A stretch of 63,557 bases of DNA, the filler included. It is 7 parts of 7 records of this genome, joined end to end, with 100 filler letters (N's around TTAATTAATTAA, not from the genome) between each part and the next. Parts side by side here need not be neighbours in the genome. Positions count along the whole stretch, not along the records: positions 19,356 to 34,677 come from SRR31156797_3486; 6 more parts are not named here. One strand, given 5' to 3'. Under the pieces are notes generated by a model that was given only the letters and a program-made list of their open reading frames with translations, made no database searches and was not told the origin of the DNA. Positions 10,591 through 34,777 of the stretch are shown here, piece after piece; positions within the stretch are counted from its first letter, which is position 1, and the number at the start of each line of letters is the position of its first letter. The position numbers and the translations under genes are program-made.

Positions 10591-10598
10591 ATTTTTGG

Positions 10599-12094: not shown

Positions 12095-12108
12095 GATGTC
12101 TTTAAAAA

Positions 12109-12238: not shown

Positions 12239-12246
12239 TGATCGAT

Positions 12247-12702
12247 ATGTTCAAAACAACTGTTACTCCCAGATTCGGTGATATTGACGGATTGAAGCAT
12301 GCCAACAATATTTCCATTGCCATATGGTTTGAGCAGGCACGCAATCCTATTTTCAGGATTTTCACACCTGACCTTGATCTTAGCTATGAAAACTGGAAAC
12401 TTATCATGGCAAGAACGGAATATGATTATGTCGGGGAAATGTTCTATGGGTTTGATGTGGAAATTATTACCTACGTATCAAGAATTGGTACCTCCTCATT
12501 CACAGTTACACAGGAAGCCTGGCAAAACAAAAAACAAGGTGCGATTGGAAAGTCTACAATGGTGCATTATGATTTTGCTGGAAAAAGATCTGTTCCTATT
12601 CCTGATGACATCAGAGAACGACTCGAAGAACACCTGCAGGAAGAAAATAATATTTCAGGTGAAAAAGAAGGAGAAAAAAATAATGGAGAAACAATTGGAT
12701 GA
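12247..12702 (+). CDS. Acyl-CoA thioesterase (4HBT/YbgC hot-dog family)
   Basis: PRFGDIDGLKHANN..WFEQAR, SRIGTSSF. Confidence 0.88.
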   Translation: MFKTTVTPRFGDIDGLKHANNISIAIWFEQARNPIFRIFTPDLDLSYENWKLIMARTEYDYVGEMFYGFDVEIITYVSRIGTSSFTVTQEAWQNKKQGAIGKSTMVHYDFAGKRSVPIPDDIRERLEEHLQEENNISGEKEGEKNNGETIG

Positions 12703-12733
12703 TGAGTGAATTCATCATCCTTTTTACTCGTTT

Positions 12734-14695
12734 CTACTCGTCTCTTTTAAACTTCCCGAAAGAGACAGCCAGCAGTCCTGCAACAGCCAAAAAACCTGTA
12801 AATCCTGGTATTCCTTTGCTGGTTGCATCTTCAGAAGTTTCTGTTTCAGGAACAGCCGTGTATGCTGCATATTCATCATATACAACTATGGAAGTTCCAA
12901 GGAAAGCAGAGTCTTCCATATAGTATTCCTGAAGCTCCTGAACAAGAGTTTGCACATCTGGATTCGTCATAAAGTCTTCACCTACTGCTATGCCAATAAG
13001 TGCTTTTCCTTGTGAAGCTCTTATTTCACCCATTCTGGAGGCTACTGAATCAATCACATCGGCCTTTGTTGCAGGGTTGTCTTCATCAAGGGCATATGTC
13101 TGGAGAATAATAACATCAACAGTTTCCGATGCATCTGATATATCTGATGAAGCGTATGATGAAGGAATATCTATTGCCACGGCCAGATCGTCTCCTGTCA
13201 TCTCTCTGATATCCTCAAGCAGGAGCAGGTTCAGTGCACAGGCTTCTCCAAGATCCTCACTGCATGGATTAAGTGCAATATCAACGCCATCAAAGGCCGA
13301 AAGTGATTTGCTATTATAGTCAATAACCTTTTCAAGAACATCTGCTACTGCTGCTGTCTCATCCTCAGCTTCCACAGGTTCAGGATCATTGAGTATCATG
13401 GCATATGCCTGCATATCATTATCATGAGCCGTCTTTACGAGCTTTTCAAGGTTCCATATGTCCTCTCCGTCCGTAAGCAGCATGAGAGTGTTTACACCAC
13501 TTTCCTTAAGGTCAGCAATAGCGTCTTCATCGTAGTTTTCCGTATCGAAGATACGAATTGCAGTCATAAGGCCACTTGCAGGAGTGACGTTAATTTTGAT
13601 AGGTTCCGGTGCTGTTACTGTCTCTTCGGCCACCGAGCCTTCAAAAGTAACAGTAGGTTCAGCGTCCACATATTTGCGCACATATGCGTAGTCAACAGAT
13701 AAATAACCTGTATTATCTGAAACATCAGAGTAAGTACCTGCATATATGTAGACATTGAGATCTTCAACGGAAATTAAGTTCTCTTCCTCTGTTGCCTCAA
13801 TATCCATCTTGCTGTCCCTGACACCATCCTTAAACCATGCAATATTTCCAAATTCTTCACCCATGTACCAGGCTACTCCAGTGGTATACCAGTCTCCTTC
13901 GATCTCATCTATGTCAGTCAGGTCTCTGGTGGTATCACGTAAGTCAGTCCTGGAATTTTTTAGTATCCATGTAACCTTGGTTTCATTCTCAAGCTCACTG
14001 CTGACAAGTATCCTGTTTTTTGTTTCCTTTTGAGGATCGACAAATCCCTGCATTATTACAGGACCTCTGCTATCGGTACCTGTTGTTGTTTTCTTTCTTT
14101 TGACAACAAACATGGAGTTTACCGGAAAATCCTCCTTGGATTTGATAGTTGCTACATCTTCCGGATGGAACTTAGGAACTATAAGTTTGCAGATTCCTGA
14201 AGATACATCTAATTCGGCTCCGCCATTTGTTGATGTCTCCCATTTACTAAACAAACCGCTTGAAAAATCATCAAATAATTCAAATGTTGCCGGTCCACTG
14301 CTTAGCTCTGTTGCACTGGGGTTTCCATAGTACATTATTATTTTGATATTGCTATTGGCAGGAATTGACGGGACCTCAACCCAGATAACTGCTGTTTCCT
14401 TGACAGTGTTCCATTCCTCGATCCAATATTGAAGCTGCTTTTCACCGGAAGTAAAACGCAGATCCTCACCTTCTGATTGGGCAAGTGAAAAATCAAAATT
14501 AGAACTATCAAGAACCACTGGTATCTGATAATCCACAAGGCTGTTTCCGGAATTTTCCTTTATGAATACCTCAGTTGAGTAGTTCCATTCTCCTCCACCT
14601 GAATATGTTAAAGCTAAACAGGGTTGTACAAATACAGTGCATGCAAACAATATTAATGTGATAACAATAATTCTTTTCAGTAGCAATCCGTACAC
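12734..14695 (-). CDS. Secreted DUF2341-domain protein with PGF-CTERM archaeosortase signal
   Basis: Signal peptide; DUF2341 (GEDLRFT..QLQYWIEEWN..AVIWVEVPSIPA..MYYGNP); C-terminal IPGF + TM + basic tail; acidic composition. Confidence 0.85.
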   Translation of the reverse strand: MYGLLLKRIIVITLILFACTVFVQPCLALTYSGGGEWNYSTEVFIKENSGNSLVDYQIPVVLDSSNFDFSLAQSEGEDLRFTSGEKQLQYWIEEWNTVKETAVIWVEVPSIPANSNIKIIMYYGNPSATELSSGPATFELFDDFSSGLFSKWETSTNGGAELDVSSGICKLIVPKFHPEDVATIKSKEDFPVNSMFVVKRKKTTTGTDSRGPVIMQGFVDPQKETKNRILVSSELENETKVTWILKNSRTDLRDTTRDLTDIDEIEGDWYTTGVAWYMGEEFGNIAWFKDGVRDSKMDIEATEEENLISVEDLNVYIYAGTYSDVSDNTGYLSVDYAYVRKYVDAEPTVTFEGSVAEETVTAPEPIKINVTPASGLMTAIRIFDTENYDEDAIADLKESGVNTLMLLTDGEDIWNLEKLVKTAHDNDMQAYAMILNDPEPVEAEDETAAVADVLEKVIDYNSKSLSAFDGVDIALNPCSEDLGEACALNLLLLEDIREMTGDDLAVAIDIPSSYASSDISDASETVDVIILQTYALDEDNPATKADVIDSVASRMGEIRASQGKALIGIAVGEDFMTNPDVQTLVQELQEYYMEDSAFLGTSIVVYDEYAAYTAVPETETSEDATSKGIPGFTGFLAVAGLLAVSFGKFKRDE

Positions 14696-19255: not shown

Positions 19256-19355
19256 NNNNNNNNNNNNNNNNNNNNNNNNNNNNNNNNNNNNNNNNNNNNT
19301 TAATTAATTAANNNNNNNNNNNNNNNNNNNNNNNNNNNNNNNNNNNNNNNNNNNN
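19256..19355. other. Artificial contig spacer
   Basis: 44 N + TTAATTAATTAA + 44 N. Confidence 0.98.
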
Positions 19356-19356
19356 C

Positions 19357-19611
19357 ACACCTGAAATCTGCAACTGGGTTTTTTCGGGTGAGGTGGTCTA
19401 CATGGTTCTTTTAGGGGGCTTCATGATTTTTGAAGGCCCCATCGTGGGGGCGGTTGCCTTTACGTATCTAAGGCTCTACGCGGTTGCCATGACGCAATAC
19501 TGGATGCTGATTATCGGAGCCACTTTGATTTTTCTCGTGCTGGCCCTGCCCGGCGGTATTACCGGGGGAATCCAGAGCCTGTTCAACCGCTTGAAACCAA
19601 AAGGGGCTTAG
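19357..19611 (+). CDS. HAAT/Liv-family ABC permease LivM-like (5' truncated)
   Basis: SGEVVYMVLLGG..EGPIVGA..LPGGITG. Confidence 0.85.
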   Translation, partial: TPEICNWVFSGEVVYMVLLGGFMIFEGPIVGAVAFTYLRLYAVAMTQYWMLIIGATLIFLVLALPGGITGGIQSLFNRLKPKGA

Positions 19612-19621
19612 GGAGACATTT

Positions 19622-20365
19622 ATGTTGCAGGTTCAGAACCTACAAAAATCTTTCGGGAAATTTATGGTGATCAGCGACGCCAGTTTTTCCGTTAAAAAAA
19701 ATGAGGTGGTGGCACTATTGGGGCCCAACGGCGCCGGGAAGACCACCATGGTCAACCTGATCAGCGGGCATCTTCCGCCCGATTCGGGAAAAATTCTCCT
19801 GGACGACCGGGACATCACCGGCGCACCGGCCCATGTTCGCATCGCCTTGGGCATCGCTCGTAATTTTCAGATCACACAACTCTTCGAGGAACTGAGCGTT
19901 CTGGACAATGTCCGCAACTGTATCTTTTCCACCGGAGGCAAGTCCGGGCGATTTTTTAAACCCGCCGGCGCCTACGGGCGGATGAAAGAGGAGGCCATGA
20001 ATATTCTGGAGACCTTCAACCTGGCTCAATTTTCTTCAGAGCCGGCCGGGGCCTTGAGTGAGGGAGACAAAAAGATTCTCGACACCGCCATGGCTTTTGC
20101 ACTCAAAGCCAAATTTCTTCTTCTGGATGAACCCACCAGCGGTGTCGCCACATCCGACAAGTTCAAGGTGATGGATACCATCATTTCGGCAATCCAAAAA
20201 CAAGGCACCGCGACCCTCATCATTGAACATGACATGGACATTGTAGCCGAATACACGGACCGCGTTATGGTTTTGGCCGAGGGCCGAATCCTGGCCGACG
20301 GCGCTTCATCAGAGGTTATGGAGAATAAAGAGGTAAAAGAGACGCTTTTCGGGGTGAGCGATTGA
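19622..20365 (+). CDS. HAAT-family ABC ATPase LivG-like
   Basis: GPNGAGKTT, GIARNFQ, LLLDEPTSG, IIEHDMD. Confidence 0.92.
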   Translation: MLQVQNLQKSFGKFMVISDASFSVKKNEVVALLGPNGAGKTTMVNLISGHLPPDSGKILLDDRDITGAPAHVRIALGIARNFQITQLFEELSVLDNVRNCIFSTGGKSGRFFKPAGAYGRMKEEAMNILETFNLAQFSSEPAGALSEGDKKILDTAMAFALKAKFLLLDEPTSGVATSDKFKVMDTIISAIQKQGTATLIIEHDMDIVAEYTDRVMVLAEGRILADGASSEVMENKEVKETLFGVSD

Positions 20366-20367
20366 CC

Positions 20368-21075
20368 ATGCTGCTATCAATGAAAAATCTGGATTTCTTC
20401 GTCCGCAGAACCCACATTTTGAGATCGGTATCACTGGAGGTGGGTGAAAAAGAAATTGTGGGGCTACTGGGACGAAACGGGGCGGGAAGAAGTTCCATCC
20501 TCAAATGTATCCTGGGGCTATATACGCCCCAATCGGGAAATATTTTCTTTAAGGAGAAGGAAATCAAGGACTGGCCCACCCGGAAGCGGATTCTTTACGG
20601 TTTGGCATATTCACCTGAGGACGCACGGGTTTTTCCCGAACTGAGCGTAAAGGAAAATGTGAAACTCTCCACCTGGATCATCGAAAAACGGCAGGATGGG
20701 AAAACCTTTGATCTTGAACAGGGATTTGAAATTTTCCCCAAACTGAGGGAACTCTGGGGACGAAAAGGGGGCAACCTCTCCGGCGGAGAAAAGAAGATGG
20801 TCTCCGTTACCCGGGCCCTGGCCCTGAAACCGGATCTGTTGCTCCTGGATGAGTCTTTTGAGGGGCTCTCGCCCCTGGTGGTCCGGCATTTCTCCGACGC
20901 CATGAGACGGATTCGGGACATGGGTATTTCCATCCTTTTGGCCGAATCCAACCTGGCCAATACGGCCCGGGTGGCGGATCGGGCTTATGTGGTTGAGCGG
21001 GGAGAAACCATATTTCAGGGAACGCCCGGAGAAATCGAAAAGGAGGAGAGTCTGAGCCTCATCCTGGGGCGCTAG
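20368..21075 (+). CDS. HAAT-family ABC ATPase LivF-like
   Basis: LLGRNGAGRSS (Walker A K>R), LSGGEKKM, LLLDES. Confidence 0.9.
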   Translation: MLLSMKNLDFFVRRTHILRSVSLEVGEKEIVGLLGRNGAGRSSILKCILGLYTPQSGNIFFKEKEIKDWPTRKRILYGLAYSPEDARVFPELSVKENVKLSTWIIEKRQDGKTFDLEQGFEIFPKLRELWGRKGGNLSGGEKKMVSVTRALALKPDLLLLDESFEGLSPLVVRHFSDAMRRIRDMGISILLAESNLANTARVADRAYVVERGETIFQGTPGEIEKEESLSLILGR

Positions 21076-21099
21076 AACCATCACATAAAGGAGATGATT

Positions 21100-22260
21100 A
21101 TGTTGGATAATATCAGTATTTTTAGAACAACACCCAGGATTGTCATGGGACCGGGCGCCGTCAGCGGCCTTGGCCGGGAAGTGCGGGATTTGAAAGCGGC
21201 CAGGACACTCATTGTTACCGATCCGGGGATCCTTCATGCGGGAATCCTTGCGCCTGTTGAGGCATCCCTCAAGGAAGCACGCGTCAAATATACGGTTTTC
21301 AGCCAAGTATCCCCCGATCCCCGGCATCAGACCGTTGAAGACTGTCTTTCGGCGGTGAAGGATTTCAAACCGACATGTGTCATCGGACTGGGGGGCGGCA
21401 GCCCCATCGACATCGCCAAGACCGTTGCGGTGATGCTTAAAAATTCCGGAGACATTATCGATTATTGCGGCATCGACCTGGTGCCCAAACCGGGACTCCC
21501 CACCATCATGATTCCCACAACGGCCGGAACCGGCAGTGAAGTCACGCCCATTGCCATCCTGTCGGACGAAGATGACAAACTCAAAAAAGGCGTGGTGAGC
21601 CCTCACCTGTTTCCGAAAGTGGCCCTGCTGGATCCTTTGCTCACCCTGGGACTTCCGGCGGCGGTCACCGCCGCAACGGGTATGGATGCCCTCATCCACG
21701 CCATAGAGGCCTTTACCAGCGTCAATGCCAATGACATGACGGACATGTTCGCCACAAGGGCCATCGAGTTGATTGCCGACAATCTGCGCACCGCCTATGC
21801 CCACGGAGAGAATCTCGACGCCCGATCGGCCATGCTTGAAGCAAGCCTTTTGGCGGGGATCGCCTTTGCCAATGCGGGGGTTACCGCAGTCCACGCCTTT
21901 GCCTATCCCATCGGGGCCGAATTTCACATTCCCCACGGCGTGGCCAACACCCTCATGCTGGCGGAAGTGATGCGATTCAATCTGGTGGGAAACCTGGCTA
22001 AATTCGCTGATATTGCGGCCATGATGGGTGAACCGGTGGATGGGCTATCCGATCGGCGGGCGGCCGAAGCGGCCGTGGATGCCGTGATGGTCCTGGCCCA
22101 GGATCTCCAGGTCCCCTCCAGCTTGGGTGAATTCGGGGTCACCGAAAACCACATTGACGATCTGGCTGAAGGGGTCATGAAGGTAACGCGGCTTCTGGCC
22201 AATAATCCGAGGGCCATGTCCCATAAGGATGCGGCGGATATCTATCGCCGGGTCCTCTGA
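21100..22260 (+). CDS. Iron-containing alcohol dehydrogenase (diol/4-hydroxybutyrate dehydrogenase family)
   Basis: GLGGGSPID, PTTAGTGSEVT, metal ligands DALIH, VHAFAY, PHGVAN. Confidence 0.92.
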   Translation: MLDNISIFRTTPRIVMGPGAVSGLGREVRDLKAARTLIVTDPGILHAGILAPVEASLKEARVKYTVFSQVSPDPRHQTVEDCLSAVKDFKPTCVIGLGGGSPIDIAKTVAVMLKNSGDIIDYCGIDLVPKPGLPTIMIPTTAGTGSEVTPIAILSDEDDKLKKGVVSPHLFPKVALLDPLLTLGLPAAVTAATGMDALIHAIEAFTSVNANDMTDMFATRAIELIADNLRTAYAHGENLDARSAMLEASLLAGIAFANAGVTAVHAFAYPIGAEFHIPHGVANTLMLAEVMRFNLVGNLAKFADIAAMMGEPVDGLSDRRAAEAAVDAVMVLAQDLQVPSSLGEFGVTENHIDDLAEGVMKVTRLLANNPRAMSHKDAADIYRRVL

Positions 22261-22422
22261 AAGGCGCCATGAAAACCCGCATGAACATCGATTCCAATAC
22301 CCGCGAACAATTACAAAAAGAAAGGAGGCTATAGACCAACCAAGGCTTGGGGATACTCAAAAAGGAAGCTCATGAATTGATTTTCCAACAAGAACGAAGG
22401 TTAACGGAGAGGAGGGAATAAA

Positions 22423-23322
22423 ATGGGTGTTTCAAGGAGAGACTTTTTTAAGGTATGTGGGGGTACGGCCGCTGCTCTGGGGCTTTCCAATCTCAAACCA
22501 TTCCAGGTCTTGGCATCGGAACCCGGTAATGTAAAGGTTTACGCCTTTATCTGCGGCATTTTGAAAACGCAGACCCAATACCTGTTGAAGGATTATCAGA
22601 TTGGAGTTCCCTTTAACATTCCCGTACCGTTTTTTCTCATCAAACACGGCGGTTCATGGGTGGCCTATGATACCGGCAACAACCTGGGCGTTGCCGAGGA
22701 TCCCATTAAGTATTGGGGCAAGGCCGTTACAGACGCATACATGCCCGTCATGAAACCGTATGAACTATTCAAGGTCCAGATCAGCCGGCTGGGACTCAAA
22801 CCCAAGGATATCAAGTGCGTCATTTTGAGCCACGGACATTTGGATCATGCCGGCGCCATTGACAATTTTGTCGGCACGGATGTACCGCTCTATTTTCAGA
22901 ACAGGGAGCTTACAATCATTAAGGATGCGGTGGCCGCCGGAAAGAAAACCGCCTACATCCCTGATGATTTTAAACAGATGAACCAACTGAACATACAAGG
23001 GATTGACGGGGCTTTTGACGTTTTCGGCGATCAGACGGTGGTCGCCTTTCCAACCCCCGGACATACCGAAGGACACCAGTCCGTGTTTGTGAAAACCGGA
23101 AACGGAAAAAGCATGGTCCTGACCCAGGATGCCTGTTATACCATGGCCAATATGATGGCCGCCATACCGCCGGGTCTGTATTGGGATATCCCCCAGGCCA
23201 TGACGGCCCTTTATACTTTTAAGGTCATGCAATGCATGGGCGCCCAGATTGTCCCGGCCCATGATCCTGATTTCTGGAAGAATAAACCTCTCGGGCCTGA
23301 AACGCTTAGCTACCTGGGTTAA
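22423..23322 (+). CDS. Tat-exported metallo-beta-lactamase-fold lactonase (AiiA/AttM-BlcC family)
   Basis: Tat signal SRRDFFK; SHGHLDHAG (HxHxDH), TPGHTEGHQS, QDACY (DxxY), AHD. Confidence 0.87.
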   Translation: MGVSRRDFFKVCGGTAAALGLSNLKPFQVLASEPGNVKVYAFICGILKTQTQYLLKDYQIGVPFNIPVPFFLIKHGGSWVAYDTGNNLGVAEDPIKYWGKAVTDAYMPVMKPYELFKVQISRLGLKPKDIKCVILSHGHLDHAGAIDNFVGTDVPLYFQNRELTIIKDAVAAGKKTAYIPDDFKQMNQLNIQGIDGAFDVFGDQTVVAFPTPGHTEGHQSVFVKTGNGKSMVLTQDACYTMANMMAAIPPGLYWDIPQAMTALYTFKVMQCMGAQIVPAHDPDFWKNKPLGPETLSYLG

Positions 23323-23665
23323 GAGTGATCCGGATTTTACGGGCCACGTGAACGTCCGGATGGCGGAGCCCTATCCCCGGAAGATCGGCGCATGGATAAG
23401 GCTCCGGGCCACCCCGGGCCGTAAGCGCATGCATCCATTAAAATTGTGAAACTCGTGCTATACATTTCTGCCCCCATATGAAATGATGAAACGGGGTTGG
23501 CCCAAAAAAGGCATGTTTTTTGGTTGATCATCACCCTTTTTTGGCAGACGATTGCAGCATGACGCTGAATGCCATCCCCGTATTGTCCGTTGCGGAAAAA
23601 ACCAAGTTTTCAAAAATCACCGACAGAACTGTAATGATTTCATTTGCAAGGGAGAAATGGCGCCT

Positions 23666-24424
23666 ATGGAAATTTTTGATTTAACCGGCAGGGTTGCCAT
23701 GGTGACCGGCAGCACCAAAGGGCTTGGGGAAAATTCCGCCATGGCGCTGGCCAAGGCCGGCGCGGATGTGGCCGTTTGTGGAAGAGACACCGCCGACCTG
23801 AAGCGGGTTTCCGAGACGATTAAGGGCTTGGGGAGAGATTCCGAAGGGTTCGCCTTTGATGTCACATCCAAAACAAGCGTCCATGAAGGCGTGGACAAAA
23901 TTCTAAAGCGGTTTGGAAAAATCGATATTCTCATGAATAACGCCGGCCTGAACCATCGGGAGCCCGTGGTTGATTACCCGGAAGAAGCCTGGGATCTGGT
24001 CATCAACACCAATCTTAAAGGGTACTTTCTGGTGACCCAGGCGGTGGCGCCGCACATGTTGGATCGGGGCTACGGAAAGGTCATCAATATAAGCTCCATT
24101 CTGGGAAAGATTGCGCTACCGAACCAGTTGGCTTACGCTTCCGCCAAAGGCGGCGTGGAGCAGATGACCAAGGTGATGGCGCTGGAATGGGCCAAGCAGG
24201 GCGTACGTGTCAATGCCATCGGTCCCACCTATTTTGAAACCGAGATGGTGAAACCGATTCGTAACGACCCGGAGCGATTCAATTTTATCAACACACGGAC
24301 GCCCATGGGCCGCTGGGGATACTTACCGGAGATGGAGGGGATCGTCATTTTTCTGGCGGCGCCCGCCTCCGACTTCATTACCGGGCAGACCATCTACATT
24401 GACGGTGGCTGGACCATCTGTTGA
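23666..24424 (+). CDS. Classical short-chain dehydrogenase/reductase (gluconate 5-dehydrogenase/KduD-like)
   Basis: TGSTKGLG, NNAG, YASAK, RTPMGRWG, DGGW. Confidence 0.9.
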   Translation: MEIFDLTGRVAMVTGSTKGLGENSAMALAKAGADVAVCGRDTADLKRVSETIKGLGRDSEGFAFDVTSKTSVHEGVDKILKRFGKIDILMNNAGLNHREPVVDYPEEAWDLVINTNLKGYFLVTQAVAPHMLDRGYGKVINISSILGKIALPNQLAYASAKGGVEQMTKVMALEWAKQGVRVNAIGPTYFETEMVKPIRNDPERFNFINTRTPMGRWGYLPEMEGIVIFLAAPASDFITGQTIYIDGGWTIC

Positions 24425-24441
24425 TGATTCAAGAGGATACA

Positions 24442-26112
24442 ATGGAATCCGTTTATGAAAAAAGGCCGTGGCTGAAAAATTACCCGGACCGCGTCCCCCA
24501 TGATCTTAATATCACCAACGAGACGGCTCTCGGAGACTTCGAGAAGAGCGCCGCTCGTAACCCTGACGCACCGGCCATATACTATTTCGATCATGGGATA
24601 TCCTTCAAGCTGGTGGACCGGTTTTCGGATCAACTGGCCGCGGCTTTTGGAAACTTAGGGCTGAAAAAAGGGGATCGGATCATCCTGGATCTTCAGAATG
24701 TCCCCCAGTTCCCCATTGCCGCCTATGCGGCATGGAAGCTGGGAGCCATCGTGGTGCCCGTGAACCCCATGCACAAGGAAAAGGAACTGGCCTATTTCTG
24801 CAATGATTCCGGTGCCAGGCTCTTTTTGACCCTCGATGAAATCGCAAACAATCTGGACCTTTCCTTTCTGAAAAACACATGCGTCGAAAAACTCGTTACC
24901 ACCTCGCCTCTCGATTTTCTGCCTCCCGGCGCCGATCCTCCGGTCCTTTTGAAGGGTGCGGAAAAGATCACTGTCCCGGGTACCCTCGACATGCTTGAGA
25001 TGATCGAGGCATTTCAAGGCAAATCACCCCATGACCCAGGCGTTACCCCCCAAGACGTGGCGTATTTGACCTATACCTCTGGGACCACCGGTCCTCCCAA
25101 GGGCGCCATGAACACCCACGGCAACATCGCCTTCAATGCCCGCGTGTACCGGACCATGCAGCGCATCGATTCCCATGATGTGGTGCTCGGCGTGGCCCCC
25201 CTGTTTCATGTGACGGGGGAGGTGGCCCATCTGGCCGTCGCCGCCCTTTCGGGGATACCGCTGGTGCTCTATTACCGCTTTGACCCGGCCGAAACCCTTC
25301 GTCTTATTGAACGATGGAAGGTGACGGTAACGGTGGCTTCCATTACCGTTTACATTGCTCTCTTAAACCATCCGGATATCAAGAAAAGAGACATCTCAAG
25401 CTTTGTCAAAGCCTATAGCGGTGGGGCCCCGGTCTCGGAAGCGGTCGTGAAGGAATTTGAGGAGACAACGGGTCTGTATCTCTATAATGTCTACGGCATG
25501 ACGGAAACCAACTCCCCATCACATATTGTGCCCTGGGGAGCAAAGGCCCCGGTGGACCCGCAAAGCGGCGCCCTCTCGGTGGGGGTTCCGGTTCCCGGCT
25601 GCGTCATGAAAATAATGGATCTGGAGGAAGGGACCCGGGAGCTATCACCCGGAGAAGTGGGCGAAATCGTTGATTCCGGTCCCATCGTGACACCCGGATA
25701 CTGGCGGAAGCCGGAAGAGACAAAGCACGCCATCCGTAATGGCTGGCTTTATACGGGCGATGTGGGCAAGATGGATGGGGACGGCTGGTTCTATCTGGTG
25801 GATCGCAAGAAAGATATGATTGTCGCCTCCGGCTACAAGGTCTGGCCCCGGGATGTGGAAGATGTGATCTATCAGCATCCTTCAGTAAAAGAAGCCGCCG
25901 TTGTGGGGGAACCCGATCCCTACAGGGGGGAGACGGTGAAGGCCTTTGTTGCGTTGAAAGAAGGGATGGAGACTTCCGTAACACCCGAGGAAATCATTTC
26001 ATTTTGCAAAGCCCGCATGGCCGCCTATAAATACCCGCGACAGGTGGAGTTTGTTGAAGAAATCCCCAAGACCCTGACGGGCAAGTTCCTCCGCCGGGAA
26101 CTGAGAGAGTAA
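24442..26112 (+). CDS. Acyl-CoA synthetase (AMP-forming, FadD-like)
   Basis: TYTSGTTGPPKG, YGMTE, TGDVG, DRKKDMI, PKTLTGK. Confidence 0.93.
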   Translation: MESVYEKRPWLKNYPDRVPHDLNITNETALGDFEKSAARNPDAPAIYYFDHGISFKLVDRFSDQLAAAFGNLGLKKGDRIILDLQNVPQFPIAAYAAWKLGAIVVPVNPMHKEKELAYFCNDSGARLFLTLDEIANNLDLSFLKNTCVEKLVTTSPLDFLPPGADPPVLLKGAEKITVPGTLDMLEMIEAFQGKSPHDPGVTPQDVAYLTYTSGTTGPPKGAMNTHGNIAFNARVYRTMQRIDSHDVVLGVAPLFHVTGEVAHLAVAALSGIPLVLYYRFDPAETLRLIERWKVTVTVASITVYIALLNHPDIKKRDISSFVKAYSGGAPVSEAVVKEFEETTGLYLYNVYGMTETNSPSHIVPWGAKAPVDPQSGALSVGVPVPGCVMKIMDLEEGTRELSPGEVGEIVDSGPIVTPGYWRKPEETKHAIRNGWLYTGDVGKMDGDGWFYLVDRKKDMIVASGYKVWPRDVEDVIYQHPSVKEAAVVGEPDPYRGETVKAFVALKEGMETSVTPEEIISFCKARMAAYKYPRQVEFVEEIPKTLTGKFLRRELRE

Positions 26113-26143
26113 AGAACATCGTAAAACCAGTAAAGGAGCCATC

Positions 26144-27598
26144 ATGAAACTCAAAAACGGGCCGGAATATATGGAAAGCCTCAGGGAATTACATCCGATA
26201 ATCTACTATAAGGGGAAGAAAATAGAGGATGTAACCCTCCACCCGGCCACGGCCCCCCATGTGCGTGCCGCGGCCATGACCTATGCCCTGGCCGGTGACG
26301 ACGAATATAAGGATCTGGCCACGACCACTTCCCACTTGACCGGGAGGACCATCGGCCGTTTTACCCATGTACACCAAAACATCGAAGACCTGATCAAAAA
26401 GGTCAAGCTCCTGCGGGTGCTGGGCCAGAAAACGGCCACCTGTTTTCAGCGGTGCGTAGGACATGACGGCATCAACGCCACCTATTCGGTGGTCTATGAA
26501 ATCGATAAAAAGTTGGGCACCGATTATTTTGAACGGTTTAAAAGATGGCTGATCCATATCCAGGACGAAAATCTCATGGTGGTGGGGGCCATGACCGATC
26601 CCAAGGGGGACCGAAGCAAATCCCCCGCGGACCAGCCGGATCCCGACCAGTATGTTCGCGTGGTGGAGCGGCGGGATGACGGCATCGTCATCCGGGGTGC
26701 CAAGATCCATATGACGGGGGCCGTAAACTCCCATGAAATCCTGGTCATGCCCACCACGGCCATGGATGATCGGGCTAAGGATTATTCCATTGTCTGCGCC
26801 GTTCCGGTGGATGCCCCCGGGATCACCATGATTTTCGGCCGCCAGGCCAATGATTACCGCCGTGATTTTGAGGAACGCATTGATGTGGGCAAACCGTCCT
26901 TCGGGTCCGTGGGCGGAGAAGCGGTGATCGCCTTTGAAGATGTGTTTGTACCCACAGAAAGGGTATTCATGGATGGTGAGGTCGAGTTTGCGGGAGACCT
27001 GGTTTATCGGTTTGCGGCGCACCACCGGGCCAATTACGGTGCCTGCAAGACCGGCCTCATGGATGTACTCACGGGCGCCGTCAGCTACCTGGCCCAGATT
27101 CAGGGTACGGCCAAAGCGTCACATGTGAAAGACAAGGTCACGGAGATGATCCATTTATCCGAGACCCTCTACAGCTCCTCCATCGCCTGCTCGGCCGAAG
27201 GGGCGCCGACCCCTTCGGGCGCCTACATGGTGGATACCATGCTGGCCAATGTGTGCAAACAGAATGTCACCCGGTTCCATTTTGAGATCGCCCGTCTGGC
27301 CGTGGACCTGGCGGGCGGTTTCCTCGCAACCCTTCCCAGCCAGTATGATCTGGAAAGTGAAGAGGTGGGCCATCTGGTGAAGAAGTATTTTTCAGGTGTG
27401 GAAGGGATCCCCACGGAACACCGCATCAAGATCGCCCGGCTCATCGAGGCCATGACCGGCGGCACCACCCTGGTGGAATCCATGCACGGCGCCGGTTCGC
27501 CCCAGGCCCAGCGGGTGATGATTTTCAGGGAAGGTGAATTGGGAAAGAAAATCAAGCTTGCCAAAAAATTACTGGGGATCCCCGCGGGGAAAACCTAA
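26144..27598 (+). CDS. abfD: 4-hydroxybutyryl-CoA dehydratase / vinylacetyl-CoA isomerase
   Basis: [4Fe-4S] ligand motifs CFQRCVG and HRANYGACK (His/Tyr/Cys), GAMTDPKGDRS, ESMHGAGSPQAQR. Confidence 0.9.
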   Translation: MKLKNGPEYMESLRELHPIIYYKGKKIEDVTLHPATAPHVRAAAMTYALAGDDEYKDLATTTSHLTGRTIGRFTHVHQNIEDLIKKVKLLRVLGQKTATCFQRCVGHDGINATYSVVYEIDKKLGTDYFERFKRWLIHIQDENLMVVGAMTDPKGDRSKSPADQPDPDQYVRVVERRDDGIVIRGAKIHMTGAVNSHEILVMPTTAMDDRAKDYSIVCAVPVDAPGITMIFGRQANDYRRDFEERIDVGKPSFGSVGGEAVIAFEDVFVPTERVFMDGEVEFAGDLVYRFAAHHRANYGACKTGLMDVLTGAVSYLAQIQGTAKASHVKDKVTEMIHLSETLYSSSIACSAEGAPTPSGAYMVDTMLANVCKQNVTRFHFEIARLAVDLAGGFLATLPSQYDLESEEVGHLVKKYFSGVEGIPTEHRIKIARLIEAMTGGTTLVESMHGAGSPQAQRVMIFREGELGKKIKLAKKLLGIPAGKT

Positions 27599-27623
27599 GC
27601 AAGGAACTTTAAGCGTCTTCGGG

Positions 27624-28109
27624 TCAATGGGCAACGACCGCCCTTTCAAAATGGATCAGCCGCTCCTTCATTGCCAATCCGTGGGCGAAGCCGACCAGTT
27701 TTCCGTTTGTCCCGATTACCCTGTGGCACGGTATGATGAGAGGAATGGGATTTCTGCTGTTGGCCATACCCACGGCCCTTGCGGCATTTTCATTCCCCAT
27801 GGCCCCGGCGATCTCCTTGTAGGTACGAAGTTCGCCATAGGGAATTCCGGTTAATGCCTTCCACACTTTCTTCTGAAATTCCGTTCCCCGGGGATCGATG
27901 GTCACATTGAATGTTTTTCGTGTTCCATTGCAGTACCCGGTGATCTGACCCGTCGTATCCGAAAAAAAACCATCGTTTCGAACCCACTCATCGGCTATTT
28001 CAAATAACCTCTTGCCCTCCCCGGTGTTTAAATGAAGATGGGTCAATCCCCCTTCGTTCCCCACCAGAATCATTTCACAAAACGGCGTATGGAATCTTGT
28101 ATAATACAT
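27624..28109 (-). CDS. ogt: Methylated-DNA-protein-cysteine methyltransferase
   Basis: GTEFQKKVW, IPYGE, ARAVG, IPCHRVIG. Confidence 0.95.
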   Translation of the reverse strand: MYYTRFHTPFCEMILVGNEGGLTHLHLNTGEGKRLFEIADEWVRNDGFFSDTTGQITGYCNGTRKTFNVTIDPRGTEFQKKVWKALTGIPYGELRTYKEIAGAMGNENAARAVGMANSRNPIPLIIPCHRVIGTNGKLVGFAHGLAMKERLIHFERAVVAH

Positions 28110-28682
28110 TCGGTATATCACCTTTGTTCCTTTATGTTTTTTGACAGTTAACGGATTTGACGGTGCAAAATTGTAAATGAGTGCTCAGCCTCGTATATTA
28201 AGTTCAGCAGAATTGATAGAACCGTGAAAATAGGAAATTGCGAAAAGATGCCTACCCATGCTCTTCATCAAAGGATCTATCATCTTAATCGTTCTATGGG
28301 CGCCGGGGAAATCGTATGTTTTTTCAAAATCATATAAGTTGTCTCACAGCTTTTTGATAGTGATACCGAACCTGATTGACGTTTTTCCAGGCACAATATG
28401 TGGGGGTTGATCCGTTTTCGGATCATCCCATCCCAGGAAAGGATTTCTTGCATCAAATCAGCATCGCACATGCGTCAAAACTATGCAACACTGGCAGATG
28501 AATTATTGAATTCGAGCCTGAGATACGTTGGAGATATTCAAACTATTGGATTTAGGCAAATTGGTGTGGTTCTATCCCAGCAGCAAGCCCAATATTCCGT
28601 CTTTAAACTTTGGGTAGGTCGAACCGTAACGCCATAGTGATTCTCGTTCAGGGTCAAGAATTCCGAAAAATCAAATTTCTTC

Positions 28683-28738
28683 TTGACAACCTCATTGTCA
28701 AGTTTTAATGTGTCCATAAGATGACAAGCGGGTTGTCA
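28683..28738 (+). promoter_or_regulatory. Two TGACAA-N5-TTGTCA palindromes (probable MarR operators) over a sigma70 promoter
   Basis: TTGACAAcctcaTTGTCAA 28683-28701 and TGACAAgcgggTTGTCA 28722-28738; TTGACA-N17-TAATGT. Confidence 0.75.
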
Positions 28739-28779
28739 AAAATGAATTCGAAATTTAAAAGATAATAAAGGAAGTTGTC

Positions 28780-29268
28780 ATGAATTCTGAAAAAATGAAC
28801 AATAGACTGGATTCTCCGGATGTAAATCTGATGCCCCCTGCGGTTTTCTTTTCATGCCTGGTTTTGGGCGGTGTTTTGGAATTTATTTTTCCCATTAACC
28901 TTAACTGGCTTACATTTCCAATACGATTGATTCTTGGATTTGTCGTCGGCGCTTTAGGATTTGCTTTTATGATGCTTGCCCATGAAAAATTTAAAAGAGT
29001 CGGGACACAGGTGCCTACAAACCAGCCTGCGAGTACCTTGGTGATTCAAGGCGCCTACCGTTTTAGCCGAAACCCCATGTATCTGGGCGGTATTTCATTT
29101 TTCATCGGCATGGGAATCAGTGTTGGCAGTCTTTGGATTTTAGCCACCGGTCTTATGTTTTTTGGCTATATTTCCCTTTATGTGGTCCCCCGTGAGGAAG
29201 CTTATATGGAAAGAACTTTTGGGCAGGCATACCAGGATTACTGCCGAAATGTCCGGCGGTGGCTGTAA
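28780..29268 (+). CDS. Isoprenylcysteine carboxylmethyltransferase (ICMT/PEMT)-family membrane protein
   Basis: LVIQGAYRFSRNPMYLG, REEAYMERTFGQAYQDYCRNVRRWL. Confidence 0.88.
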   Translation: MNSEKMNNRLDSPDVNLMPPAVFFSCLVLGGVLEFIFPINLNWLTFPIRLILGFVVGALGFAFMMLAHEKFKRVGTQVPTNQPASTLVIQGAYRFSRNPMYLGGISFFIGMGISVGSLWILATGLMFFGYISLYVVPREEAYMERTFGQAYQDYCRNVRRWL

Positions 29269-29777
29269 TGAAAACGGAAAAAAATGAATTTACAGCGGAA
29301 AAAGGCAGAATTCTCCATGATCTATTCAGGGAGGTTTTTGAGCTTCAGGCGGAGTTGGTATCGGTTATGGACAAAGCACATGAATTGAGCGGGTTAACCA
29401 CACCGCAGCGCAGGATTATGAATGCGATTCGCCGGCAAAGAACAGCTACGGTGCCTGATATTGCTTCGCTGCTGGGTGTCTCACGACAATTTGTGCAAAC
29501 CGTCTGTAACAAGATGGTCTCACTTGATTATATAGAATTTAAAGACAACCCGCGGCATAAGCGCTCCCGGTTGGTTGTCTTGACCGAAGCAGGGAATGCG
29601 AACCTTGTTTCAGCCCGGAGGAAAGAAAACGAAATGATCGATCGGGCCATCCCGGATATCAATTTAGAGAAAGCAGCAGAAGTCAGAGAGTTACTGGCAA
29701 TTATTCGGAAAAGTCTTGGCACCTCGTCTTTGGCCAAAAAATCGGGCAAAAATTTATGTTCCATTTCCCACCGCTAA
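29268..29777 (+). CDS. MarR-family transcriptional regulator
   Basis: TVPDIASLLGVSRQFVQ, NPRHKRSRLVVLTEAG; TAATG coupling to the ICMT gene. Confidence 0.9.
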   Translation: MKTEKNEFTAEKGRILHDLFREVFELQAELVSVMDKAHELSGLTTPQRRIMNAIRRQRTATVPDIASLLGVSRQFVQTVCNKMVSLDYIEFKDNPRHKRSRLVVLTEAGNANLVSARRKENEMIDRAIPDINLEKAAEVRELLAIIRKSLGTSSLAKKSGKNLCSISHR

Positions 29778-29985
29778 ATGTCTATGCTGCACCCTGCAGG
29801 AGGGTATGTTAATCTTCCATCCGAAAAAATGCTCGTGTTACTTCAAGAATTGAGGGTGTGTTAATTTCTCGACAGACAATACAGCTTTACATACCCATTT
29901 ATCAGAGCATAACCGTATAAATTTATCTGAGCGCCATAGAAAATCCTTGACAAATCCTAAAGACTTTTGTTGGAATGAGGATAAA

Positions 29986-30005
29986 TCGGCCGGCTGGCCG
30001 GTTGG
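29986..30005 (+). promoter_or_regulatory. Probable TetR operator 1
   Basis: TCGGCCGGCTGGCCGGTTGG imperfect palindrome downstream of TTGACA (29947); 16/20 identical to the site at 30817. Confidence 0.55.
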
Positions 30006-30069
30006 CGATAGCATTGAGCGGAAATACTTTTTAAAATATACTTAATGTCTGAAGGAGGGAAATATATAG

Positions 30070-30684
30070 TTGCGGATGAAAAAAGAAGCCAACATCTACA
30101 CATCCAATCCAAACAATAGGAAGTTTCAAATTGTAAAGGCCGCGGCCTTCCTTTTCAATGAGAAAGGCTACGAGCGAACCACCCTTAAAGATATTGCTGG
30201 CAAGATAGGTATCACCAAAGCCACGCTTTATCATTATTTCAAAAGCAAACACGACCTACTGTTCCATATAATCGATGAAAGCATCACTGATGCTACCAGA
30301 CGAATGTCTCACATATTGGATTCGCCGGTGGGTACCAATGAAAAAATTGATTTAGCGTTTCGTCAGCATTTTCAGTTCTATTTAACGAAATACCCTGGTG
30401 CAAGTGTGATGCTGCATGAAAAAACCGACTTACTTCCCAGCGAACAGGAAAAAATCATAAAGGAAAAATTTCGGGAATATATTACGTTCTGGGAAAAAAT
30501 TTTAGAAGAAGGGTGTGAACTCGGTATCATTAGACAGGATTTGGATACTAAAATAATGAGGTGGGCCGCGATCGGAATGTGCAATTGGGTTTATAAGTGG
30601 GCGTCTTCCGAAGGAAGGCAGCCGTTTGATCAGATTGCGGGAATGTTTTCGGAGCTATTCAAAACAGGCGTATTAAAAAAATAG
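30070..30684 (+). CDS. TetR/AcrR-family regulator (KstR2-like C-terminus)
   Basis: AAFLFNEKGYERTTLKDIAGKIGITKATLYHYFKSK; IGMCNWVYKW. Confidence 0.92.
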   Translation: MRMKKEANIYTSNPNNRKFQIVKAAAFLFNEKGYERTTLKDIAGKIGITKATLYHYFKSKHDLLFHIIDESITDATRRMSHILDSPVGTNEKIDLAFRQHFQFYLTKYPGASVMLHEKTDLLPSEQEKIIKEKFREYITFWEKILEEGCELGIIRQDLDTKIMRWAAIGMCNWVYKWASSEGRQPFDQIAGMFSELFKTGVLKK

Positions 30685-30816
30685 AAAAGATAACACTGGA
30701 ATGTTGCTTCTGGTTTTCCGCGTTCTGTTTTGTTCATGTTTGGATGCTTTAACGGAATGTGTTTGAAGCACATGATATCTGCGAGTTTAAAGGCCTATAT
30801 TTTTTTATTCCATGAG

Positions 30817-30836
30817 CCGACCAGCTGGCTGGTTGG
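30817..30836 (+). promoter_or_regulatory. Probable TetR operator 2
   Basis: CCGACCAGCTGGCTGGTTGG imperfect palindrome (16/20 self-complementary) upstream of an AAAGGAGG RBS. Confidence 0.55.
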
Positions 30837-31323
30837 CTCTCTTTTTCTAAAACTTAACTCTTTAACATTTGACTTTTTTAAAGGAGGGAAAAATGAATAG
30901 CCCGTCTGCATCGTTGGAATGAGCCTGCATGAGCTAAAAATCATAGGCAGCGGCTTTGCAGCCACCCACGACTTTTTTGAGGGAATTAGACTGTCAAACC
31001 AGAGGGAAAGAGATCCATAAGCGGCTACGGGCCTAAAGGAGGTCACGAGTAAATATCCAAATACGTAGGTCTCAATATTGCACATAAAATTTTCAAAGGC
31101 ATTTTCAAGGTAAGAGAAATAGAAGGATGAAACTAACGATGTTTTCCCCGGCAAAAAAGACTTCACCAAGTTTGCATAATCTTCGTATCCGTAGGATTTA
31201 GAACATCTCATTAATGAATATCATGGAGAAATACCCAAAGTCATGTGCACCCATTGCGAGACCATTCCCCGGTTTACAGGAGACAGTGTCTTTACGATTT
31301 GTGAACCGCCGTAAAATGACTAT

Positions 31324-31361
31324 TGTCGCGATTCCGCGAAAGTTGTCACACGAATGCGACT
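31324..31361. promoter_or_regulatory. Tandem TGTCRC-N6-GCGA palindromes, probable enhancer sites of the NtrC-family regulator
   Basis: TGTCGCgattccGCGAAA and TGTCACacgaatGCGACT with a 20-bp period, 45 bp upstream of the kinase gene. Confidence 0.55.
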
Positions 31362-31405
31362 TGCGGTAACTGATACACGTTTTTTATTTTCGTGAGGTAT
31401 TTGAA

Positions 31406-32872
31406 ATGATGAGCAATGTCGAACGTATCACCAGATGCAATGATGGTTTATTGGAGAAGGTTTTGGAAAATTTGCCCATTGGAATTATGGTTCTTGACAA
31501 CCAGGGGAGAATTCTGCGGATTAACCGCTGGCAGGAAAGAATCTCCAAGGTGGAACGTGAGGAAGCCGTCGGCAAATACTTCCACGAGTCCTGGAGGCGC
31601 CTTTTCGATCAAGGCGTTATGAAACCTTACTGGGATCTTATCCATAAAAGAAAACCTTATGAAATGATTATCGATAAGATCTATCCGCAATTCTACAATA
31701 AGCAAATCACCGCGATCCTGCGTGGCGCACCTTTGCCCGGCGGTGAGGGCTTTGTTCTCATCAATGATGTTTCAGAAGAAATAAAACACGATAAACGTCT
31801 GTTAGAAAAACTCACAAAGGAACTGAGCAAATCCAAAGTTTTTCTCGAAAACATGATTGATTCCTCCCCCAATGCGGTTATCACAATCGATAATGATGGT
31901 ATCATCAAGTCTTTCAATAAGACAGGTATTCTAATGTTTGGTTACAAGAAAGCAGAAGCTATCGGAATGAAAGTTTCAGATCTTTTTGAAAAGCCAATAA
32001 ACCCGGATACTCTTGAGACCTCAAATTTTGACGGGAAAACCCGGGAAGTCACATGCAAAAGGAAAAACGGCAAAACGTATCCTGGCAAAATAAGTCTTGC
32101 GGATATCAAGAATAATATGGGCAAGTCTCAGGGAGAATTAGTCCTTGTTACCGATTCCACGGAACAGAAGATCGTTGAAGAGAAATTGGCAATATCCGAG
32201 AAACTGGCCATTTATTCTGAACTGATGGCTGGAATTGCCCATCAGATCAACAATCCCATGGTGGGCGTGATCAATTTTTCTTCAATGCTCTTGGATAAGA
32301 CCGATAAGGAAGATCCCAAAAGACCTTTGGTGGAGACCATCTATGAGGCAACCAAGAACTGTCAGAAAATGCTTTCTTCAATGATGGCATGTATTCACGA
32401 GCCAAGGATCAATTTTTCCAAGATAGACATTAGAGATGCCTTGGAGAGTCCTATTCAAGATGCGAGGAATCACATTGAGACACACTTGGATGGCTGCATA
32501 AAAATATCGAGGCGGATCAACAAGCGAATTCCGGCGGTAAATGGCGATTTATTGCAGCTTCGTCAGGTATTTAGAAACATTCTGAACAACGCGATAGAGG
32601 CGATGCCTCACGGGGGTGACATAAAGGTGAGAACAAAGATCGACTGGGAGGCGCGCGAACTTCAAATAAGATTTACCGACTCGGGTTCCGGTATCTCAGA
32701 AGAACATCTTCCCCGGCTTTTCATCCCTTTTTTCACCACAAAAAAGGGAAGAGGGAAAGGACTTGGCCTGAGTTTTGCTTTTCAGATGATCAGAAACCAT
32801 AGAGGACGCATAGAGGTTAATTCTTCAGGAAATAAGGGGAGCACTTTTACGATTTTATTGCCTATTTTTTGA
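31406..32872 (+). CDS. Soluble PAS-PAS histidine kinase (NtrB-like)
   Basis: Two PAS domains, MAGIAHQINNP, NILNNAIEAM, FFTTK, GKGLGL; no TM segment. Confidence 0.92.
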   Translation: MMSNVERITRCNDGLLEKVLENLPIGIMVLDNQGRILRINRWQERISKVEREEAVGKYFHESWRRLFDQGVMKPYWDLIHKRKPYEMIIDKIYPQFYNKQITAILRGAPLPGGEGFVLINDVSEEIKHDKRLLEKLTKELSKSKVFLENMIDSSPNAVITIDNDGIIKSFNKTGILMFGYKKAEAIGMKVSDLFEKPINPDTLETSNFDGKTREVTCKRKNGKTYPGKISLADIKNNMGKSQGELVLVTDSTEQKIVEEKLAISEKLAIYSELMAGIAHQINNPMVGVINFSSMLLDKTDKEDPKRPLVETIYEATKNCQKMLSSMMACIHEPRINFSKIDIRDALESPIQDARNHIETHLDGCIKISRRINKRIPAVNGDLLQLRQVFRNILNNAIEAMPHGGDIKVRTKIDWEARELQIRFTDSGSGISEEHLPRLFIPFFTTKKGRGKGLGLSFAFQMIRNHRGRIEVNSSGNKGSTFTILLPIF

Positions 32873-32882
32873 AGGGAAAAAA

Positions 32883-34322: not shown

Positions 34323-34439
34323 CCGCTCTCTCCCATGTTGTGTTGGAATTCACTCGATTCCGTTGTTATTACGGGTTTCCATGTCAGCAGTTTTTGTTTA
34401 CAAAAACCGCCAAGCCGTTTTTGGGGGGATATTTAACCA

Positions 34440-34677: not shown

Positions 34678-34777
34678 NNNNNNNNNNNNNNNNNNNNNNN
34701 NNNNNNNNNNNNNNNNNNNNNTTAATTAATTAANNNNNNNNNNNNNNNNNNNNNNNNNNNNNNNNNNNNNNNNNNNN
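34678..34777. other. Artificial contig spacer
   Basis: 44 N + TTAATTAATTAA + 44 N. Confidence 0.98.

Follow-up and report, generated by a model that had tools for sequence, protein, structure and literature searches.

The window analysed here is a stretch of DNA of 63,557 bases composed of seven contigs joined by N44-TTAATTAATTAA-N44 linkers, and at the very start of its fourth piece (19356-34677) lies an operon that a first-pass annotation had presented as a candidate anaerobic pathway for gamma-lactones and 4-hydroxy acids. The eight co-oriented reading frames which it listed are all present on the + strand. They encode the end of a Liv-type importer, an iron-containing alcohol dehydrogenase (Fe-ADH), a lactonase of the AttM/AiiA type, a short-chain dehydrogenase/reductase (SDR), an AMP-forming acyl-CoA ligase and AbfD. 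Two recurrent modules, Liv-FeADH-lactonase and SDR-ligase-AbfD, seem to have been recombined in it, and its lactonase behaves as an optional cassette. Its features and the gene that bounds it are the following.

19357-19611, + strand: LivM-type ABC permease, C-terminal 84 residues (UrtC model 30.7 bits; 71% identity to the LivM end of lactonase-linked loci)
19622-20365, + strand: LivG/UrtD-type ABC ATPase (ABC_tran 105 bits; UrtD 186 and LivG 162 bits, both below their cut-offs; 73% identity to the copies in genomes G611 and G612)
20362-21075, + strand: LivF/UrtE-type ABC ATPase (ABC_tran; UrtE/LivF-type NCBIfam models on top)
21094-22260, + strand: Fe-ADH (Fe-ADH and ADH_Fe_C of Pfam)
22257-23650, no strand: presence/absence cassette of 1.39 kb, made of spacer, lactonase gene and spacer (skipped in contigs of runs X3 and X4)
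22423-23322, + strand: lactonase of AttM/AiiA type and metallo-beta-lactamase fold, predicted to be exported by the twin-arginine (Tat) route (Lactamase_B; AttM model on top)
23657-24424, + strand: SDR (adh_short)
24421-26112, + strand: AMP-forming acyl-CoA ligase (AMP-binding 289.7 bits, AMP-binding_C 84.2 bits)
26144-27598, + strand: AbfD, 4-hydroxybutyryl-CoA dehydratase / vinylacetyl-CoA isomerase family (HpaB_N and HpaB of Pfam; matches to 1u8v and 6vjr)
27624-28121, - strand: O6-methylguanine methyltransferase gene (Pfam), convergent, the 3' boundary of the operon and not a member of it

The genes are tightly packed, with 4-base overlaps between LivG and LivF and between SDR and ligase, 18 bases between LivF and Fe-ADH and 31 bases between ligase and AbfD, in contrast to the lactonase gene, which is bordered by spacers of 162 and 334 bases. 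The enzyme assignments of the first-pass annotation (Fe-ADH, AttM/AiiA-type lactonase, SDR, AMP-forming ligase, AbfD) hold by Pfam, NCBIfam and solved-structure matches, and its SDR frame is present with a start that is most likely ATG 23657, which has a ribosome-binding site, rather than TTG 23552. None of the NCBIfam equivalog models is matched at or above its cut-off and, consequently, no protein of the operon is a named equivalog. The Liv-type importer stands in part: LivG and LivF are complete on the contig and the permease is a fragment, since the linker ends at 19355 and base 19357 is the second one after it. Orthologous loci carry a full Liv/HAAT set of binding protein, two BPD_transp_2 permeases and two ATPases, and the binding protein, LivH and any regulator are missing from the cut operon of the window. 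No aldehyde dehydrogenase was detected by Pfam in the operon contig.

Sigma-54 promoter motifs were matched 26 times in the whole window, where 29 matches were expected, and neither spacer of the lactonase gene contained one; scans for sigma-70 promoters and terminators over 19356-28800 did not rise above shuffled sequences. The operon promoter is probably located past the contig end.

Physical linkage and the lactonase cassette

The possibility that a chimeric contig had created the gene linkage was considered and dropped on the evidence of two contigs. In run X1, the probable source of the sequence, a second assembler produced a 40,589-base contig which is identical to the window over 21500-25500 (0 differences) and reaches about 1.9 kb to the left of base 19356. 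In run X2, a hydrothermal-vent metagenome from another study, a contig of 1,540 bases aligns with 22260-23435 and 23492-23690 at about 94% identity, and its first 26 letters read as the same Fe-ADH C-terminus, so that the junction from the Fe-ADH end through the lactonase to the SDR start is spanned. The physical linkage is real and no assembly artefact.

The operon nevertheless has a seam. In the nearest genome locus, L003, homology to the SDR-ligase-AbfD part (86%) stops at 23648, just 5' of the SDR gene, which indicates that the window cluster is a joint of two parts. The methyltransferase gene is also found 3' of AbfD in L003, 3 kb further on and with 92% nucleotide identity; the roughly 3 kb of extra sequence between the two genes (L003:11523-14430) encodes a SEC-C motif protein, an AlkA-like protein and a PIN domain protein.

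The lactonase itself is variable at this position. In contigs from run X3 (plastisphere) and run X4 (marine sediment), position 22262 or 22256 is joined straight to 23651 and the lactonase is skipped, with at most about 54 letters in between in X3, a run that also contains low-depth contigs on the lactonase. Related populations thus carry FeADH-SDR-ligase with or without the 1.39-kb lactonase cassette. A search for repeats flanking the cassette gave only short chance matches, and no insertion mechanism was seen.

Enzymes encoded by the operon

AbfD gave Pfam scores of 320.8 and 219.5 bits (HpaB_N and HpaB), with both parts of the HpaB_N plus HpaB_C fold found, and it aligned with the solved Clostridium aminobutyricum enzyme (PDB 1U8V) over residues 4-489 of the latter at 536 bits (E 7e-160) and with the Nitrosopumilus enzyme 6VJR at 487 bits. 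The first-pass annotation had credited it with all [4Fe-4S] ligands, and this is borne out by the alignment: C100, C104, H294 and C301 of the window protein align with C99, C103, H292 and C299 of 1U8V, which we take, as to both numbering and role, to be the cluster ligands, and the four are kept in 6vjr too. The positions T190, E257, Y296, K300 and E455, presumably catalytic in AbfD, are all identical in the window protein by hand count on the printed alignment, and Y298 of the window protein is among the active-site positions aligned with 1U8V. By its aligned catalytic positions, the predicted enzyme is intact. Locus L001 has the AbfD closest to that of the window (96%); there (8965-13085), the upstream ligase is reduced to its C-terminal 335 residues and a DDE_Tnp_1-associated gene lies 3' of AbfD, suggesting rearrangement by a mobile element. 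Genomes G066 and G080 each hold 8-11 matches to the AbfD/HpaB family (33-84% identity, some with internal stops), a large set of paralogues.

The lactonase has the AttM model (NF045700) as its top NCBIfam match at 172.6 bits against a cut-off of 390 and is 32% identical to Rhizobium AttM, counted from residue 36 onward; it is, consequently, a relative of AttM and not an equivalog. The HxHxDH motif, the distal His, Asp and His and the active-site Tyr of the fold of acyl-homoserine lactonase type are all present, and the 8 sequences compared, AttM among them, all share H137, H139, D141, H142, H214, D236, Y239 and H280. Relative to AttM, the protein has a 35-residue N-terminal extension which bears a twin-arginine motif and scores 26.5 bits with the TAT_signal model TIGR01409 (cut-off 16.7). 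The motif is kept in 7/7 intact aligned homologues, with two more showing it by eye, and is missing from AttM. The lactonase is, on the strength of this predicted signal, an exported enzyme. The periplasmic ring opening put forward by the first-pass annotation is supported as far as the compartment is concerned, by the passed Tat model and the motif in homologues, for a lactone substrate that is putative.

Some homologues depart from this pattern. The closest two (L081:527-1426 and L082:3959-4858, 89-90%) carry a TAA stop in frame at codon 10, within the twin-arginine motif and next to a T run, so that either export has been lost or the homopolymer was misread in sequencing. The lactonase of L121 (G612:C2, about 12676-12820, - strand) is missing some 45 N-terminal residues, comprising the signal and the first conserved strand, and may be a broken gene. 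In a protein database, 304 clusters of lactonase homologues were found at E 1e-40 or better, some named from the cultured species Desulfosarcina widdelii and Desulfogranum japonicum, which makes growth and induction tests possible.

The remaining enzymes are less specific in their relationships. Fe-ADH has the 1,3-propanediol oxidoreductase 3bfj as its best solved relative (284.6 bits) and shares 42% identity with the Fe-ADH that adjoins AttM in a Rhizobium blc operon; its orthologues in relatives (59-67% identity) adjoin either the lactonase or a tungsten-type aldehyde:ferredoxin oxidoreductase (AOR). The nearest NCBIfam models of the SDR are gluconate 5-dehydrogenase (248.6 bits, cut-off 279) and glucose 1-dehydrogenase (212.4 bits, cut-off 215), that is, enzymes acting on free hydroxy acids or sugars, and the solved 4ibo matches it at 218 bits. 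For the ligase, the best NCBIfam match is PRK08314, a long-chain ligase subfamily (474 bits, cut-off 705), and the best solved relative is 8wev (251 bits).

Gene neighbourhoods in relatives

Neighbourhoods of AbfD were collected from 80 loci, one genome per species, 68 of them Desulfobacterota-type (76-96% identical); the sequence available upstream is under 3 kb in 24 of these 68 and at least 5 kb in 37. The counts among the 68 loci are as follows.

Orthologous ligase directly upstream of AbfD: 12/68
Second ligase type (47-53% identical) directly downstream of AbfD: 7/68
SDR of at least 70% identity on the same strand as AbfD: 8/68, with 2 more on the opposite strand
AOR near AbfD: 7/68, among them L003, the source of the AOR query
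Fe-ADH near AbfD: 4/68
Liv genes near AbfD: 7/68

SDR orthologues (71-93%) lie directly 5' of the ligase in 7/8 same-strand AbfD loci, the remaining one (L031) having its ligase 3' of AbfD. Gene orders were read by Pfam in seven AbfD loci, and four of them combine the parts in different ways.

L003: AOR-SDR-ligase-AbfD
L009: LivKHMGF-SDR-ligase-AbfD
L022: LivKHMGF-FeADH-AOR-ligase-AbfD
L045: LivKHM(GF)-FeADH-AOR-AbfD

The binding protein of L045 is 72% identical to the lactonase-linked one. Twelve AbfD loci are without such neighbours; their contexts are mixed, and several include AMP-binding enzymes of other kinds or acyl-CoA dehydrogenases. Neither a carboxylase nor a succinyl-CoA reductase, the partners expected in carbon fixation, was found near AbfD by Pfam in the window and the seven loci.

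The lactonase was followed in the same manner. Homologues occur in 2/209 genomes of one order (the same genomes as the class of G001), 3/401 of a phylum sample and 3/65 of another family, and a metagenome scan gave 14 loci; of the three in the phylum sample, two are 68% identical and the last, at 42%, was left out of the context analysis. The linkage of importer and Fe-ADH with the lactonase that the first-pass annotation described recurs in these relatives, with orthologous genes and in three gene orders.

EBP (sigma-54 activator)-lactonase-LivKHMGF-FeADH-AOR: L084, L091, L094, L099, L112 and L113; L083 has the same order and is cut within LivF
Liv-FeADH-AOR-lactonase: L085 and L120
Liv-FeADH-lactonase: L121 and the window

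L121 reproduces the left half of the window operon in gene order and has the most similar Liv genes (LivG 73%). AOR belongs to the enzyme set in relatives, which extends the set of the first-pass annotation beyond what the window shows; no AOR remnant was found in the window by tblastn or in the spacers by blastn. In L081 the lactonase is 90% identical and the Liv genes only 55-61%, implying that the lactonase gene moved between such operons. A -24/-12-like element lies about 165 bases 5' of the lactonase in five loci. In G462 and G405 an SDR-ligase pair (74% and 67-68%) and a second Liv system stand divergently beside the lactonase operon. Six of the 7 lactonase-bearing genomes have an AbfD orthologue (80-84%) elsewhere, against a base rate of 61/209 in the one order, a co-occurrence drawn from a small sample that is not phylogenetically independent.

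Comparison of the L099 binding protein with solved structures gave weak matches (at most 80.6 bits) which were uninformative as to the ligand. Two further observations concern these loci: the contigs of L084, L091 and L094 all stop 180-270 bases past the AOR gene, which may mark strain-variable content, and in L098 (G066:C17) the lactonase homologue is separated from a ligase-Liv cluster by a fused EutB-EutC ethanolamine ammonia-lyase gene (about 11691-13817, - strand).

As to the window as a whole, its linkers occupy these positions.

5799-5898
12139-12238
19256-19355
34678-34777
50797-50896
55959-56058

G+C of the seven pieces ranges from about 0.30 to 0.57, and the seven-contig record is probably a mixed bin. 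The piece 5899-12138 has G+C of about 0.30, a strong GC skew and genes for RadA, DisA, two Band-7 proteins and a chemoreceptor. On the operon contig itself, G+C falls from 0.54 to 0.42 right past the methyltransferase gene (about 28100-34677), and 3' of that gene lie a PEMT-like methyltransferase, MarR, TetR, a PAS histidine kinase and a sigma-54 response regulator, with no link to the operon shown.

Proposed pathway, its alternatives and known systems

The modules described above form a network, in which the lactonase is found with Liv and Fe-ADH, the Liv/Fe-ADH/AOR set with ligase-AbfD, and the SDR-ligase pair with AbfD and, at other loci, with the lactonase operon, and the simplest account of it is a shared pool of 4-hydroxy acid. 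The route considered for the window starts with the Tat-exported, binuclear-metal lactonase, which would open a gamma-lactone ring in the periplasm; the Liv/HAAT-type binding-protein ABC system would then take up the 4-hydroxy acid, the AMP-forming ligase would form its CoA thioester at the expense of ATP, and AbfD would dehydrate the thioester by its [4Fe-4S]/FAD radical mechanism to a 2-enoyl-CoA (crotonyl-CoA for C4) entering beta-oxidation. Fe-ADH and SDR may act as accessory oxidoreductases feeding the 4-hydroxy acid pool from a 1,4-diol, a hydroxy-aldehyde or lactol, or a 4-oxo acid. The acid is predicted by homology to be 4-hydroxybutyrate, but its chain may be longer than C4. Possible roles for Fe-ADH and AOR are oxidation of the acid to a dicarboxylate, as in blc, or of a 1,4-diol to the acid; the SDR could instead work on the 4-oxo or lactol form. 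All substrates, the direction of the dehydrogenases and the action of the modules in one pathway are predictions from sequence. For the sequence of ring opening, import, CoA ligation and radical dehydration in an anaerobic bacterium of Desulfobacterota type (sulfate-reducer type) our confidence is evenly balanced. More tentatively, with confidence somewhat short of that, Desulfobacterota may degrade gamma-lactones, 4-hydroxy acids and, it may be, 1,4-diols without oxygen by an undescribed, modular system whose lactonase, importer, Fe-ADH, AOR or SDR, ligase and AbfD are shuffled among operons, the lactonase travelling as a cassette.

Several results weigh against the proposed route. The lactonase was found in 0/80 AbfD loci at E 1e-3 (0/68 of the Desulfobacterota-type), and the genomes of L001, L003, L009, L022 and L045, which have ligase-AbfD or AOR-AbfD loci, contain no close lactonase (0/5). 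Conversely, AbfD is absent from the stretches fetched beside lactonase homologues, 16 in all, of which 9 are on metagenome contigs with readable flanks and 7 in genomes, and the distance between the two genes is about 1.5 to 4 Mb in three genomes whose contigs reach megabase scale. The lactonase operon that ends in AOR, as in G080, G611 and the like, could be a self-contained route to a dicarboxylate with no need of AbfD. On the side of the enzymes, the top models of the ligase are long-chain fatty-acid ligases, every score being below its cut-off, and the SDR resembles enzymes of free sugar acids and is without an obvious role on 4-hydroxybutyrate; moreover, a lactone made by the SDR in the cytoplasm would not meet a periplasmic lactonase. 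The first-pass annotation had looked to a conserved neighbourhood of abfD, lactonase and ligase: its lactonase member fails to recur, while the SDR-ligase pair does recur beside AbfD. Taken together, its pathway is supported in the genes, the export signal and the recurrent modules, and is not supported in the three-way neighbourhood, which is not conserved; the substrate, C4 or longer, is putative.

The best-surviving alternative, which we nevertheless regard as unlikely, is that two independent modules came to lie side by side by chance recombination, namely a blc-like set of exported lactonase, importer and Fe-ADH that would normally take the opened lactone by way of the oxo acid to a dicarboxylate, with AOR standing in for succinic semialdehyde dehydrogenase and lost here, and a separate SDR-ligase-AbfD set supplied with 4-hydroxy acid from another source. 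The complete lactonase-Liv-FeADH-AOR operon without ligase or AbfD in G080 and G611, which mirrors in its lactonase, Fe-ADH and AOR the lactonase, Fe-ADH and aldehyde dehydrogenase of blc, speaks for such independence, as do the abrupt end of L003 homology at 23648, the long spacers around the lactonase within otherwise compact genes, and the lactonase-less allele of X3 and X4. What counts against it is that the same parts have been joined repeatedly and independently, which argues for a shared substrate pool: L022 has the Fe-ADH/AOR/Liv set fused to ligase-AbfD, L045, L062 and L066 have it fused to AbfD, and the SDR-ligase pair abuts the lactonase operon in G462 and G405.

Less probable again is a 1,4-diol such as 1,4-butanediol as the main substrate. 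Fe-ADH would then produce the 4-hydroxy-aldehyde, which cyclizes to a lactol, the SDR would oxidize the lactol to the lactone in the manner of sugar 1-dehydrogenases, and the lactonase or spontaneous hydrolysis would yield the acid for ligase and AbfD, while in relatives AOR would convert the aldehyde to the acid directly. Such a scheme fits the kinship of Fe-ADH with 1,3-propanediol oxidoreductase, the near-cut-off glucose 1-dehydrogenase score of the SDR, the way in which AOR and SDR (with or without lactonase) fill the same slot between Fe-ADH and ligase across relatives, a lactonase that is optional for a step which also runs spontaneously, and the FeADH-AOR-ligase-AbfD order of L022, which reads as a linear four-step route. 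It fits poorly with an exported lactonase next to Fe-ADH and SDR that are without signal peptide, with an ABC importer orthologous to the lactonase-side one, which suggests an anionic cargo and not a neutral diol, and with L003, where AOR and SDR are both present.

More doubtful still are longer or substituted gamma-lactones and 4-oxo or 4-hydroxy acids (gamma-valerolactone, levulinate, 4-hydroxy fatty acids), with the SDR interconverting 4-oxo and 4-hydroxy forms and AbfD replacing the phosphorylation-elimination enzymes of the aerobic levulinate route, after the logic of the Pseudomonas lva operon. SDRs of this type work on secondary alcohols and ketones, the SDR is constantly paired with the ligase, the ligase resembles medium/long-chain and feruloyl ligases, and the AbfD/HpaB-family paralogues of G066 and G080 hint at several substrates; on the other hand, AbfD is highly conserved and closely related to the C4 enzyme, with which it shares every active-site position that was aligned. 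The least likely explanation, that the lactonase is a periplasmic quencher of neighbours' acyl-homoserine lactones apart from carbon catabolism, draws on its nearest named families and solved structures and on the source names of its homologues, all acyl-homoserine lactonases, and on a site suited to destroying incoming signal, and is opposed by its conservation in operons of sigma-54/EBP type with importer, Fe-ADH and AOR (the -24/-12-like element among them), by the place of AttM itself in a catabolic operon and by the lack of an acylase gene close by.

The proposed route through a 4-hydroxy acid pool would have consequences beyond this operon. Gamma-butyrolactone-type lactones and 1,4-butanediol are natural signals, fermentation products and polyester monomers, and a Tat-exported AttM relative would also amount to a periplasmic quorum-quenching activity in sulfate reducers. 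Full-text searches, subscription journals and supplements lying outside their scope, found no paper that joins AbfD with a lactonase or butanediol anaerobically, that leads such lactones or 1,4-butanediol through a ligase and AbfD without oxygen, or that treats gamma-butyrolactone degradation by sulfate reducers. In sediment metagenomes, abfD serves as a marker of 4-hydroxybutyrate CO2-fixation cycles, including in sequences assigned to deltaproteobacterial sulfate reducers (PMC5507547). The position of abfD beside importers, hydrolases and dehydrogenases, with sigma-54 activators in relatives, indicates heterotrophic use, so that marker counts may overstate dark carbon fixation; if the modular Desulfobacterota system is true, their sediment abfD would report heterotrophic C4 catabolism and not CO2 fixation.

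Among known systems, the closest is blcABC (attKLM), represented by the Rhizobium plasmid locus L108, in which an AttM-type lactonase adjoins Fe-ADH in a catabolic operon as it does in the window. This precedent, invoked by the first-pass annotation, is confirmed by the lactonase, Fe-ADH and semialdehyde dehydrogenase annotated in L108 and by the identities of 32% and 42% given above. The window differs from it in the Tat signal of the lactonase, which AttM is without, in the presence of an ABC importer, in having no NAD-dependent succinic semialdehyde dehydrogenase, in whose place relatives use AOR, in the SDR, CoA ligase and AbfD that follow, in a host lineage of anaerobe type, and in the regulator, which is a sigma-54 activator in the window's relatives and IclR in blc.

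Clostridial 4-aminobutyrate/succinate fermentation employs AbfD with a 4-hydroxybutyrate CoA-transferase and a 4-hydroxybutyrate dehydrogenase of Fe-ADH type. The window operon shares with it an AbfD close to the solved C. aminobutyricum enzyme and an Fe-ADH, but has an AMP-forming, ATP-consuming ligase in the place of the CoA-transferase and adds an importer and an exported lactonase. In the archaeal 3-hydroxypropionate/4-hydroxybutyrate and dicarboxylate/4-hydroxybutyrate cycles a synthetase, there 4-hydroxybutyrate-activating, is likewise paired with the dehydratase, whereas the context in the window is one of uptake and hydrolysis genes and catabolic-type control, with no carbon-fixation genes. 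The levulinate (lva) operon of Pseudomonas putida combines an acyl-CoA synthetase, an SDR and conversion of 4-hydroxyacyl-CoA to enoyl-CoA by phosphorylation and elimination; in the window route, a radical [4Fe-4S]/FAD dehydratase would carry out the dehydration instead. Oxidative sugar routes pass from an SDR-type sugar 1-dehydrogenase to a lactonase, and the window resembles them in its SDR near the glucose 1-dehydrogenase model and its lactonase, which, however, belongs to another fold family, is predicted to be exported and is not accompanied by sugar-acid enzymes. What is new in the operon is the way in which known enzyme families are arranged; its architecture is modular, and its exported lactonase is conserved.

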